Shown one piece after another: positions 2,557 through 6,095 of a stretch of 64,000 nt of DNA. The notes beneath the pieces were generated by a model. The model was not told the origin of the DNA, made no database searches, and saw only the letters and a program-made list of their open reading frames with translations. Each line of letters starts with the position of its first letter. Positions within the stretch are counted from its first letter, which is position 1. The translations under genes were made by a program, and so were the position numbers. Source of the DNA: a virus; IMG/VR virus record IMGVR_UViG_3300044837_000097, positions 18,716-82,715 of that record. One strand, 5' to 3'.

Positions 2557-5500
2557 ATGTCTGGACCAAATCCAGCAGCATCAAACGTAGCAAACGTCCT
2601 AACGGCGCAAGCCATCATCAAAAAGGTGACACTCTAAAACAACTTGACTGAAAGAGTCAAATGTGCTAGAATAGACAATCTCTTCTTATTGACTTGAAAC
2701 CTGAAACGGCAACAAGGCGGAAGCCGAAAGGCACCGTGAGAGACTAAGCGAAGAGACGCCGAAAGGCGATGCGATAGTCCGTTCTTCCGAGAAAACAATC
2801 GGAAGAAGCAAGCAGAAATGACTTGCTCTCTGGAATACACCAGAGTAACAAAACAGCTTCGACAAGGAACTTATCCCTATCGCGTAAGCGAGCAAGTTCC
2901 GAAGGAATGACATGAAGGTACGAAACATCGTTGGACAGACTTTTGGGAGACTGGCCGCCCAGAGTGCCGCAGGCAGTAACAGCAGGGGGCGAGCACTGTG
3001 GTTGTGTCGTTGTTCTTGTGGCAAAGAGAAAATAGTTCTCGGAGACCACTTAACACGAAAGGATGCCAAAGGCGTAAGGTCTTGCGGATGTTTACAGCAA
3101 GAGAATCGTACAAAGCATGGAGCATTTTCTTCAAATTCAGATATAAAATACCACGTTCGTTATTCTCTTCTGGCAGGCTTGAAGGACAGAAGCCGCAGAA
3201 GGGGCTACGAATCAGACTTAGAAATCTCCGACATACCCGAGATTCCTGAGCTTTGTCCCGTTCTTGGGACTCGTTTGAGTTTGCACCGAAACAGCCACGG
3301 CAAAGGAAAAGGCAGAGGCAGAAATAGACAAGACGCCTCTCCATCAATAGACAGATTTAATTCAAATCTTCCGTACCTTAAAAAGTACAAAGATAATCTG
3401 TGTATTATTTCGTGGCGAGCAAACAAGCTAAAGTCAGACGCGTCTCTTGTCGAGATGAAGAAAGTGGTGGAATATCTTGAAAATTGGGGCACTCAGCAGA
3501 GTGAAAAATCTTCTCTAATTGACTCGAAACCCAACCAAATCGGGGGCAACGAGGCGGAAGCGAATAGCGCCGTGAGAGACTAATCGAGAAGACGCCGAGA
3601 GGCGATGTAATAGTCCGGTCTAACAAATGAAAATTGTTAGAGGCAGGCGGAAACGACCAGTCCCGTGATGGGCGTCACGGTAACATATACGAACCTAAAG
3701 GGTAATACAAACGCCTTCGTTGGAGCAGCAGAGCGTCGTGTTCAGGGCCTTCACATGGGCATCAACCGTACGTTCTTCCAGTACAACACGCTATCGGGTG
3801 ACATCACCCAGAAGGCGGACGGTACTGTAGGCTCGCCGGAAACCATCACCCAGTTGAGCGCACCCGCTCAAATCGGTGAGTGGAAAAACTAAGTTATTCC
3901 ACTATAAACTCAGCTATATCAAATTAGGTCTTGACAAACCGCAAAGGCTCTTGTTAAGATGAGTTTGAGGAAACTCTAAATGGAAAAGAAAGCGTGGCCG
4001 TATGTGGCCGGATTGCTAGATGCAGAAGGGACAATCCAGATTGGCGTCGATAGAAGGCCAGACGGCGTAATCGGGATGTCGCTTCAAATTATCATCACTA
4101 ATACCGACACTCGACTGATGAAGTGGCTTAGTTCAAACTTCGGGGGGAAGTTCTACCGAAGGAAGAACACTCGCGGCTTTTCATCGAGCGAGTCTCCCGA
4201 TATTTACTTTTGGTGGCTTTTCGGTAAAGAAAAACAAGAAGCATTTCTTCTCGGTATCCTTCCTTTTCTCAAAACAAAGAAACAAGAGGCCCTTCTGGGT
4301 CTTGAGTTTGTTCGTTTGGTCGGGTGGAATAAAGAAAGAAAACTTCAAATAGCGGAAGAAATGAAAGCCGCTAAGGTTAGTGATGTAGAGAAAGATAGGC
4401 AAGTTAATCTGACAAGGCTTACCCCCGCAGAAGACTCGGCATACGCCGCAGGGCTTTTTGATGGGGATGGTTCAATCGGCTCAAGCGTAGAGATTACTCA
4501 AAAGAGGATTCTTCTGATGAGGTGGCTCTTGATGTGCTTTGGCGGAAGGTTTAACCAACGCAGCATGAACGGCGGTAAAACTTTTTTCAGGTGGCGTCTC
4601 TCAGGAAAGAAAAACAAAGAGTTGTTTCTTCTTGATTTGATTCCTCATCTTGTTATTAAACGGGACAGTGCAAGAGCATTGCTCGCTTCTCTTAGAGCAT
4701 CAAAGAGTTCCGCAACGACTGACATGTTGAGTACTTCGCAAGAAGTGAAGACACAGTCTGAACTTACTGGTGACAGTAAGAGCGACCCTGTGAAGACACA
4801 GGACTCCATAAACAAAAAGTAACTTCGCGAACTTTTCGTCGTTCGCAATTGCAGCAGCAATTGACGAACTCGTTGGCAACAGCGCCGTGGAACTTGGCTA
4901 CCAAGCTGGGCAGTCCATCAGCGAGTTGTACAGCGCAGTAGCAGACAGCGCCAACTCGGTTGACTCACAGGTTAACCAGTCATCGTTGCTTGCATCTCCG
5001 TACACGCTTGACCTTGGCACCATCCGTGAGTTGAAGCAGCAGCTTGTTTCAAAGAACGTGTTGCCGTGCAAGCGCGGTATGTTCTTGGGCGCAATTAGCC
5101 CGAACGTGTTGGGCGACATTTACAATGCAACGACTGTGAACAACAGCATCGTTGACTTGTGGAAGTACGAGAACATGGAGAAGTACGACCAGATGGCAGG
5201 TTCGGACCAGAACAAGGTCATCGTGTTGCCGGGTACCAACATCGGCTTCATGCAGACCCCGTTCGTGACCACGACTGCTAACTACCAGTCAACAGGCAAA
5301 ATTGGCTACCGCACATACGTGTTCGGTAACTACGCCATGATTGGTGTGTGGTTGCAGGTACCGGGCGACACCGACCTTGACGACGGTGACTGGAAGACGA
5401 TTGACTGCCGCGTCGTAACCGACGCGCCGATGTCATCGTTTGACCCAGTTTCGACGATTGGCGGATGGTGTTCGTACAAATTTCATCAAACCGTTACGTT

Positions 5501-5567
5501 GCCACCGGCAACGGGAACAAACACGCAGCGTATCCGCTACGTAGATTCGGTTCCGGCCATTCAGTAA
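2557..5567 (+). CDS. Major capsid protein (N4-gp56-like), spliced: join(2557..2618,2857..2878,3692..3885,4820..5567), 341 aa
   Basis: 62+22+194+748=1026 nt forms one open frame: MSGPNPAASNVANVLTAQAII-FDKELIP-NLKGNTNAF...QIGEWN-NFANFSSFAIAAAID...DPVSTIGGWCSYKF...IQ. Follows the scaffold gene. Confidence 0.88.
2619..2856 (+). ncRNA. Group I intron 1 of the capsid gene (ORF-less, 238 nt)
   Basis: P1 UCAUC/GGUGA with U2618.G2626; P3 2679-85/2750-56; P7 GACUA 2742-46/UAGUC 2775-79; P8 CGCC-GAAA-GGCG; terminal G2856. Confidence 0.9.
2644..2672 (+). promoter_or_regulatory. Sigma70-type promoter inside intron 1
   Basis: TTGACT, 17-nt spacer, TAGAAT, with extended -10 TG. Confidence 0.6.
2879..3691 (+). 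ncRNA. Group I intron 2 of the capsid gene (813 nt, endonuclease ORF in the P1 loop)
   Basis: Exon end CCCU pairs with distal IGS GGGG 3486-89 (U2878.G3486); P3 3509-15/3586-92; P7 GACUA 3578-82/UAGUC 3611-15; terminal G3691. Core is very similar to intron 1. Confidence 0.88.
2912..3583 (+). CDS. Intron-encoded HNH-type homing endonuclease
   Basis: N-terminal GQTFGRL...WLCRCSCG...SCGC module; C-terminal CPVLG...SIDR...NLCIISWRANKLK. Its stop codon lies in P7. Confidence 0.8.
   Translation: MKVRNIVGQTFGRLAAQSAAGSNSRGRALWLCRCSCGKEKIVLGDHLTRKDAKGVRSCGCLQQENRTKHGAFSSNSDIKYHVRYSLLAGLKDRSRRRGYESDLEISDIPEIPELCPVLGTRLSLHRNSHGKGKGRGRNRQDASPSIDRFNSNLPYLKKYKDNLCIISWRANKLKSDASLVEMKKVVEYLENWGTQQSEKSSLIDSKPNQIGGNEAEANSAVRD
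3886..4819 (+). ncRNA. Group I intron 3 of the capsid gene (934 nt, ORF starts in the P6 loop)
   Basis: IGS AAGUUAUUCCACU 3891-3903 is complementary to the ligated exons; P3 3908-14/4726-32; P7 GACUG 4717-21/CAGUC 4754-58; P8 ACUUC-GCAA-GAAGU; terminal G4819. Confidence 0.85.
3931..3960 (+). promoter_or_regulatory. Sigma70-type promoter in P5 of intron 3, upstream of the LAGLIDADG ORF
   Basis: TTGACA, 18-nt spacer, TAAGAT with extended TG; SD GAGG 3967-70; ATG 3980. Confidence 0.6.
3980..4822 (+). CDS. Intron-encoded double-motif LAGLIDADG homing endonuclease
   Basis: Motifs YVAGLLDAEG and YAAGLFDGDG; AT-rich. Reads through the ribozyme core and its TAA is the first three bases of exon 4. 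Confidence 0.9.
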   Translation: MEKKAWPYVAGLLDAEGTIQIGVDRRPDGVIGMSLQIIITNTDTRLMKWLSSNFGGKFYRRKNTRGFSSSESPDIYFWWLFGKEKQEAFLLGILPFLKTKKQEALLGLEFVRLVGWNKERKLQIAEEMKAAKVSDVEKDRQVNLTRLTPAEDSAYAAGLFDGDGSIGSSVEITQKRILLMRWLLMCFGGRFNQRSMNGGKTFFRWRLSGKKNKELFLLDLIPHLVIKRDSARALLASLRASKSSATTDMLSTSQEVKTQSELTGDSKSDPVKTQDSINKK

Positions 5568-5666
5568 CTAAATAGTTACTATGACGAACTTCCCACGGGC
5601 TTATAATCCGTGGCTTACTAATCAGGGGGAGCCTCGAACTCCCCCAGATTATCTTTCGAGGAGATT

Positions 5667-6095
5667 ATGTCAGAAGCAACAAGAGCAGCAAGTCGTCGTT
5701 ATTATCAAAAGAATAAGGAAGCAGAAAAGATTCGTTCGAAGAAATGGCGTCAAGACAACCCAGAAAAATATAAAGAATGGGCAGAGAAGAATAAAGAAAA
5801 ACGACGTGCTGCCAGTCGTCGATATGAATACAATATCACACCAGAAGAGTATGAACGAAAGAAAGCAGAACAAGGAAACAAATGTGCTATTTGCCGACAG
5901 GAAACTAATTTGCTTGTAGTAGACCATAATCATCTGTGTTGTCCATCGAGAAAAAGCCGAGCAGGATATAAAACTTGTGGCAGATGTAATCGTGGCCTCT
6001 TATGTCGTTCATGTAATACAGCAATCGGATTGTTCAAAGAATCGGAGCAAGTCCTCAGCAGCGCAATCCAATATCTCAAAGGATACCAACAATGA
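5667..6095 (+). CDS. Free-standing endonuclease VII-family homing endonuclease
   Basis: CAIC...VDHNH...RGLLCRSCNTAIG; basic N-terminus; AT-rich. Confidence 0.85.
   Translation: MSEATRAASRRYYQKNKEAEKIRSKKWRQDNPEKYKEWAEKNKEKRRAASRRYEYNITPEEYERKKAEQGNKCAICRQETNLLVVDHNHLCCPSRKSRAGYKTCGRCNRGLLCRSCNTAIGLFKESEQVLSSAIQYLKGYQQ

Follow-up and report, generated by a model that had tools for sequence, protein, structure and literature searches.

Three putative group I introns of two families in the major capsid gene of an uncultured phage

Several phage genes, some of them for structural proteins, are known to carry group I introns. In crAss-like phages of the Delta and Zeta groups, the account of Yutin et al. 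(2021, PMC7886860) describes major capsid protein (MCP) genes split by group I introns with endonuclease domains, and one Zeta-group MCP gene is given there as five fragments. The capsid gene of mycobacteriophage LittleE contains a group I-type intron with an HNH gene, the splicing of which was demonstrated by reverse transcription PCR and protein sequencing according to Pope et al. (2013, PMC3706429). The same source presents this intron as optional among relatives, mentions a relative of it without an open reading frame (ORF) in tail genes, and cites a capsid intron of Tuc2009. As described in PMC11878797, orf142 of Staphylococcus phage Twort, a late structural gene later recognised as that of the tail tube, carries three group I introns and shows exon skipping. 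That account also reports two or three group I introns in each of the DNA polymerase and terminase genes of Bastillevirinae, with exon skipping in one polymerase gene and with endonuclease genes in long loops that fragment the Rfam matches; the introns detected in that work were confined to genes of DNA metabolism and packaging, and the authors raised the question of the reason. The present analysis concerns the major capsid gene (positions 2557-5567, plus strand) of a phage of about 83 kb. The gene lies in a window of 64,000 nucleotides (nt), bases 18716-82715 of one 82,715-base contig (IMG/VR record IMGVR_UViG_3300044837_000097). It is our reading, to which a probability of about 85% can be given, that this single capsid gene is interrupted by three group I introns of two families, and that these are tolerated selfish mobile elements.

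As in the crAss-like MCP genes (PMC7886860), the capsid gene of an uncultured phage is here broken into several fragments by group I introns that bear endonuclease genes. Unlike the crAss-like case, it belongs to another lineage, with an N4-like predicted capsid fold, from soil, peat, and freshwater. The crAss-like introns were recognised in that account by their protein domains, whereas RNA folds, guides, a micro-exon, and a transfer signature were resolved here. Twort orf142, as described in PMC11878797, is likewise a late structural gene that carries three group I introns, but it is a tail gene with observed exon skipping, and the present gene encodes a capsid protein. The LittleE gene shares with the present one a capsid-gene group I intron with an HNH gene that is optional among relatives; however, LittleE and Tuc2009, as presented in PMC3706429, have one intron per gene, compared to three introns of two families here, two of them separated by an exon of 22 nt. 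The target also differs from that reported for Bastillevirinae (PMC11878797), since it is the capsid gene. The first-pass annotation of this DNA had implied that the arrangement is rare, as phage introns are best known from DNA-metabolism genes. This was overstated, because capsid-gene introns and multi-intron capsid genes had already been published (PMC3706429; PMC7886860). Multi-intron capsid genes are a known arrangement, and what is new here are two intron families missed by Rfam, a twin-intron cassette with a signature of transfer, and the non-canonical splice-site nucleotides of the second family.

As seen in Table 1, the gene is divided into four exons, whose join measures 1026 nt. When the three inserts are taken out, one frame of 341 codons and a stop remains, and the resulting protein aligns without gaps across all three junctions, including the segments AIIFDKELIPNLKG and GEWNNFANF, with 21 intron-less homologues of 340-345 amino acids (aa). 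A search with the exon 4 translation yielded 296 relatives; among the 120 homologues listed, 92 have a length of 340-345 aa. The same four exon blocks with exact borders were obtained from a nucleotide spliced alignment against the window. The aligner used for it allows no small indels; rows for forms of 343-345 aa, whose block chains made no sense, were dropped, and a locus was retained only if it had no more than 5 blocks and scored above 300. The last base of each insert is G (G2856, G3691, and G4819), and the base before the insert is U for inserts 1 and 2 and A for insert 3. From the sequence alone, the first-pass annotation had proposed three group I introns with a P3/P7/P8 core in each, these excision points, the terminal G, and a double use of exon 2 as the 3' exon of intron 1 and the 5' exon of intron 2. 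All of this was borne out: the coordinates are exact in both alignments, a core is found in every insert with covariation in relatives, and the micro-exon is real. Its first 3 nt enter P10 of intron 1, and its last 4 nt (CCCU) enter P1 of intron 2. It is unchanged (22 of 22 nt) in the related loci L017 and L019 and occurs also in L068, between introns of other sizes.

Without splicing, the reading frame of the capsid mRNA reaches a stop after 26 codons, and capsid output must therefore depend on splicing. The consequences of exon skipping were computed. If exon 2 or exon 3 is left out singly, a frameshift results and stop codons are reached at positions 23 and 29. The only in-frame skip joins exon 1 to exon 4 and would give 269 aa, which is 72 residues fewer, with residues 21-93 lacking.

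Table 1. Features in and around the capsid gene (positions in the window).
Feature	Position	Strand	Size	Basis or remark
Capsid exon 1	2557-2618	+	62 nt	Spliced frame, homologue alignment, spliced alignment
Putative intron 1, group I family A, without ORF	2619-2856	+	238 nt	Covariation, core profile, minimum free energy (MFE) fold
Sigma-70-like site TTGACT-17-TAGAAT with upstream TG	2644-2672	+		In intron 1, 5' of the HNH ORF; 10/12 matches
Capsid exon 2 (micro-exon)	2857-2878	+	22 nt	Spliced frame, spliced alignment
Putative intron 2, group I family A	2879-3691	+	813 nt	Covariation, core profile; core at 3504-3663
Putative HNH-type homing endonuclease ORF of intron 2	2912-3583	+	223 aa	PHROG matches
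Capsid exon 3	3692-3885	+	194 nt	Spliced frame, homologue and spliced alignment
Putative intron 3, group I family B	3886-4819	+	934 nt	Covariation, guide-exon match
Sigma-70-like site TTGACA-18-TAAGAT with upstream TG	3931-3960	+		P5 hairpin of intron 3, 20 nt 5' of the LAGLIDADG start; 10/12 matches
Putative double-motif LAGLIDADG endonuclease ORF	3980-4822	+	280 aa	In the P6 loop of intron 3; Pfam, motifs
Capsid exon 4, including stop	4820-5567	+	748 nt	Spliced frame, homologue alignment
Terminator-like hairpin	5625-5645	+		3' of the capsid stop

The product of the gene is predicted to be a major capsid protein of the HK97 fold, nearest to the capsid protein of phage N4. The protein modelled was the homologue P0001, which is 92% identical over exon 4. 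With a structure alignment of 70 sequences including distant representatives (A3), AlphaFold gave a predicted local distance difference test score (pLDDT) of 87.4 and a predicted template modelling score (pTM) of 0.81, with a helix at 110-140; an earlier model from a shallow alignment (A2, 33 sequences, 73-91% identical) had a pLDDT of 33. The best PDB structure matches of the P0001 model are the capsids of phages N4, Moo19, Pan3, and GP4 (E 5e-13 to 3e-12, template modelling score 0.57-0.68). The Foldseek matches shown among the top 45 ranks are all capsid proteins of phages or archaeal viruses, and rank 46 is an encapsulin, a protein with the same fold as HK97 capsid proteins. At the sequence level, a Pfam search of the capsid protein gave no match and a PDB sequence search gave nothing better than E 0.49, while PHROG 1357, annotated as major head protein, was matched weakly (E 1.7e-04). 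Atlas features of the protein lean toward the Phage_capsid_3/4 and N4-gp56 clusters and were taken as a lead only.

Introns 1 and 2 lie 22 nt apart and appear, from alignment and covariation, to be sister members of one compact group I family, here called family A. The family A alignment (A1) contains 21 sequences, including intron 1 and the ORF-free part of intron 2 (3478-3691). Its structure, obtained from RNAalifold with P7 added by hand, comprises P3, P4, P5, P6, P7, P8, P9, and P9.1 in group I order with the P3/P7 pseudoknot. Pairing is maintained in 98.2% of 907 cells, compared to 34-42% with slid partners; compensatory change is present in 32 of 44 pairs, and none of 500 shuffles reached the observed values. 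Even the P7 pair beside the bulged base covaries, between A-U and G-C. In intron 1, the guide AAG/GUGA (2623-2629) is the complement of the ligated exons UCAU/CUU, with UCAU contributed by exon 1 and CUU by exon 2, and a U2618·G2626 wobble is formed at the 5' splice site. The helices of this intron are P3 at 2679-2685/2750-2756, P7 at 2740 and 2742-2746/2775-2780 with A2741 bulged, and P8 at 2757-2760/2765-2768. When intron 1 was folded alone, the MFE structure recovered P1 with the wobble pair and P1-P9.2 (z = -5.6).

In intron 2, the guide UU/GGGG (3484-3489), with the pair U2878·G3486, is located about 600 nt from the 5' splice site because the HNH ORF occupies the P1 loop. An ORF-less homologue of intron 2 at the same site (L068:5642-5805) has its guide GGUUGGGG only 5-12 nt from the splice site. 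The ORF overlaps the guide and P2-P6, and its stop codon is the TAA of the P7 segment GACUAA. A function as a homing endonuclease is suggested by its matches to phrog_374 (3.9e-18), phrog_3322 (4.1e-18), and also PHROG 1035; no Pfam family was matched at E 0.01. With nhmmer, the family A core profile found only intron 1 (2674-2828, E 8e-42) and intron 2 (E 6e-32) on the 82.7-kb contig. Related IMG/VR loci were represented by the best 80 of 108, of which 70 span the whole gene, and many of the 80 have inserts of 164-240 nt in the capsid gene, nearly all preceded by T and ending in G, with the 3' end GTAACAAnnnnG. The profile also matches the spacer between two ribonucleotide reductase coding sequences of Roseobacter phage CRP-118 (OR420741.1; nhmmer E 2.4e-15, 76% identity over 104 nt). 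CRP-118 thus shares the family A core and differs in the host gene and in the phage family (Autographiviridae); its record carries no intron annotation.

The family A core profile did not match intron 3, which hence lies outside that family. Covariation supports its assignment as a group I intron of a second family, family B. Its guide AGUUA/UUCCACU (3892-3903) is complementary at every base to AGUGGAA/UAACU of the ligated exons, over 12 contiguous pairs. Family B guides also track their exons: UAACU is accompanied by AGUUA, and where exon 4 starts with CAAC, CAA is accompanied by UUG. This exact complement, together with the joint change of guide and exon, makes the junction well defined. The predicted helices are P3 (3909-3914/4726-4731), P4 (3919-3923/3964-3968), P7 (4717-4720/4755-4758), P8 (4733-4737/4742-4746), and P9 with P9.1 (in 4763-4806); P5 and P6 were assigned by eye. 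Two pattern scans (6 viral and 34 metagenomic loci) and the capsid-gene relatives provided 34 distinct 3' cores of family B. Over these 34 sequences, P8, P9, and P9.1 covary, with 93.1% of positions paired compared to 31-43% when slid. P3, which spans the ORF, has 6 of 6 pairs in 20 of 25 candidates, representing 14 distinct helices, and mismatched partners reach 6 of 6 in 15%. All 5 pairs of P4 are formed in 19 of 19 sequences, with 3 helix types.

The ORF in intron 3 is assigned to the LAGLIDADG endonucleases by its matches to PF00961 (8.6e-07; 30.2 bits against a cut-off of 23.1) and PF14528 (1.4e-04; 22.5 bits against 22.5) and by the motifs LLDAEG and LFDGDG in its translation. P7-P9.1 also serve as coding sequence for the C-terminal tail of this ORF, whose TAA stop consists of bases 1-3 of exon 4. 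In L099 and L121, which contain family B introns in other genes, an ORF with its own TTGAC...TATAAT-like site is located in the P5 region and not in the P6 loop; the position of the ORF therefore varies within family B. The diverged capsid gene of L104 is a further mixed-family multi-intron gene, in which a family A-like core with an internal insertion was noticed upstream of the family B intron, at about 30-200 of the oriented strand.

Group I introns almost always have a U·G pair at the 5' splice site, and by this standard the A3885-U3897 pair found at that of intron 3 is unusual. Borders could be placed for 13 family B introns of this capsid region, with L119, L097, and L104 excluded (exon alignment scores 15, 9, and -9). 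The 8 introns at site 278 and the 3 introns at site 277 have A at position -1 and G as the last base. The 2 introns at site 274 have U at -1, which forms the U·G pair, and A as the last base. Both canonical nucleotides, U·G and the terminal G, are combined in none of the 13. The introns at site 274 (L048:4966-5995 and L073:3066-3701) are inserted 4 nt upstream of the site used in the window, after GAGU/GAAU, and the start of their 3' exon, GGAAU, is fixed by P10 pairing of AUUCU with GGAAU. An A at the aligned last intron position was also observed in L089 and L119. LAGLIDADG enzymes cut with a stagger of 4 nt; the spacing of the insertion points 274 and 278 equals this stagger, which hints at the origin of such sites. 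A search of the literature for natural exceptions to the U·G rule found nothing useful. We tentatively propose, at somewhat less than even odds, that family B at this capsid site never combines the two conserved splice-site nucleotides, that these introns, if accurately spliced in an essential gene, would depart naturally from both the U·G rule and the terminal-G rule, and that a LAGLIDADG helper might assist them.

A further possibility is that intron 3 cannot self-splice efficiently without U·G, so that it either needs a helper protein, such as its own LAGLIDADG product in the role of a maturase, or splices poorly and lowers the capsid yield. The guide does set a Watson-Crick pair at the cleavage site, A is found at -1 in 11 of the 13 introns with placed borders (8 from site 278, 3 from site 277), and LAGLIDADG maturases are established for fungal mitochondrial introns. 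However, at least 8 diverged sequences of an essential gene keep the A-U arrangement while guide and exon covary, which argues that the introns work well enough. Moreover, L092 has a family B intron of 230 nt at site 277 with A at -1, which is too small for an ORF. A defect of this kind in intron 3 is considered unlikely.

The mobility of the introns can be seen in a comparison of the window with L017 and L019. Intron 1 (238 of 238 nt) and exon 2 are identical, and intron 2 is identical at 799 and 811 of 813 positions, whereas exons 1, 3, and 4 are just 78-89% identical. The identity continues into the exon edges beside the block, for 20 nt at the end of exon 1 and for 41-53 nt at the start of exon 3. 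The identical block with its identical exon edges is the pattern expected from co-conversion during homing and points, by sequence comparison, to a recent lateral transfer of the intron 1/exon 2/intron 2 unit between phages. Since the identity is block-wide and the mismatches keep clear of the block, the two sister introns and the micro-exon appear to be transferred together, with the HNH enzyme of intron 2 as the presumed driver. No such signature is seen in intron 3, whose identity to its relatives is about 73%. Intron 3 is optional, as close relatives in the public runs X1, X2, and X4 have DNA contigs in which the flanking exons are joined at its site, and two of these runs (X1 and X2) keep introns 1 and 2. 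According to a census of the 70 complete relatives based on tblastn chains, 34 have at least one insertion block (one in 29, two in 3, and three in 2) and 36 have no intron. About 13 insertion points in the capsid gene are used among the relatives. Of the 44 insertion blocks in the 80 loci, 37 contain a core of family A and the other 7 a core of family B, and some blocks consist of two introns.

According to the proposed explanation, all three introns would have to be removed at the RNA level for a full capsid mRNA. In each of them, an internal guide would pair with the end of the upstream exon (P1) and with the start of the downstream exon (P10), and the P3-P9 core with its P3/P7 pseudoknot would catalyse two transesterifications. 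Introns 1 and 2 with the micro-exon would most likely move as a unit, by a double-strand break made by the HNH enzyme and a repair that co-converts flanking exon sequence. The presence of intron 3, with the LAGLIDADG gene in its P6 loop, would not depend on that of introns 1 and 2. The introns would be selfish mobile elements, tolerated because they splice, and would be no control device for capsid synthesis.

A control device was what the first-pass annotation had suggested, with ordered splicing of the three introns gating or timing late capsid synthesis. The dependence of capsid output on splicing agrees with this as a general point only, and PMC11878797 discusses the idea that phage introns could be a regulatory 'switch'. 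Yet the 36 complete relatives without an intron in the capsid gene manage without such a device, the other relatives have different numbers of introns at different sites, and close relatives are without intron 3. In addition, the intron 1/2 cassette shows the signature of recent lateral transfer, and single exon skips lead to frameshifts. Nothing in introns that are optional and mobile suggests a regulatory role; the suggestion is unsupported, and we regard it as improbable.

Several points weigh against reading the inserts as three group I introns of a working capsid gene. Splicing of the capsid introns is inferred and not observed. The covariance-model check that had been proposed with the first-pass annotation was negative: with Rfam RF00028, nothing in the window, the three introns included, was matched at the gathering score of 50 bits. 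Below this threshold, intron 3 alone was seen (4679-4780, 24.2 bits, E 0.0028), and introns 1 and 2 gave no match even at E 10. P1 is short, with 4 base pairs in intron 1 and in intron 2, and the guide-exon tests of family A are weakly positive: contiguous P10 and P1 pairing occurs in 7 of 24 introns compared to 8.1% with non-self exons, and the 5-nt P1 pattern in 8 of 24 compared to 8.4%. That P7 does not vary in family B is a product of the search pattern. As A-U stands where U·G is usual, self-splicing of intron 3 may be slow or protein-dependent. The capsid fold was predicted on the homologue P0001 and not on the window's own spliced protein. Finally, the 80 loci include duplicates: L048 is the same as L049, for instance, and L063-L066 are almost identical to one another.

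The failure of RF00028 at its gathering threshold would also fit inserts that are not spliced, in which case homing-endonuclease insertions would have left a broken, dead copy of the gene, or the assembly would be chimeric. This is very improbable. The exons retain a clean 341-codon frame and are 92% identical to intact homologues, and the covariation indicates that the insert folds are under selection. The same structure is found on independent contigs, namely L017, L019, and contigs from the runs X1 and X2. The rest of the window gave no match to a second capsid copy free of interruptions, and the only intron-core profile hits on the 82.7-kb contig are introns 1 and 2. An intein is ruled out by in-frame stops after each 5' junction, and a group II intron is ruled out by group I folds and the lack of a reverse-transcriptase ORF.

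The head module has the gene order large terminase, free-standing HNH gene, SU10-type portal, 124-aa ORF, 433-aa scaffold-like ORF, and capsid gene. This module is flanked by two free-standing genes of the HNH/Endonuclease VII type, one directly 3' of the capsid gene (5667-6095) and the other between terminase and portal (L082:2706-3332; genome C1:16705-17331). The gene between terminase and portal is distant kin of the intron 2 ORF (26% identity over 90 aa, E 1e-07). Two promoter-like sites inside the introns (Table 1) might allow expression of the endonuclease ORFs. The site in intron 1 lies in a P2 insertion unique to this version of the intron. The TTGACA of the site in intron 3 was judged by eye to be kept in L013, L041, L095, and L116 and not in L074 and L083. 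Sigma-70-like sites are not enriched in the whole region, where 3 were found compared to 3.5 ± 1.8 expected.

Gene callers will miss or shorten capsid genes of this kind. Several database 'proteins' that start at (N)LKG or end abruptly in the C-terminal part (P0037, P0058, P0076, P0082, P0009, P0024, P0033, P0078, and P0120) look like gene calls cut at intron borders. Since Rfam detects neither intron family at its gathering score, alignments A1 and A4 could seed new RNA models. The A-U splice site of intron 3 offers a direct natural test of how strict the U·G rule is. The twin-intron cassette with its 22-nt exon provides a concrete example of an ORF-less intron carried along by the endonuclease of its neighbour. 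Roughly half of the sampled relatives in this clade are affected, at about 13 sites. The gene is a well-resolved case in which phage group I introns, beyond the DNA-metabolism genes, also colonise the most highly expressed late gene.

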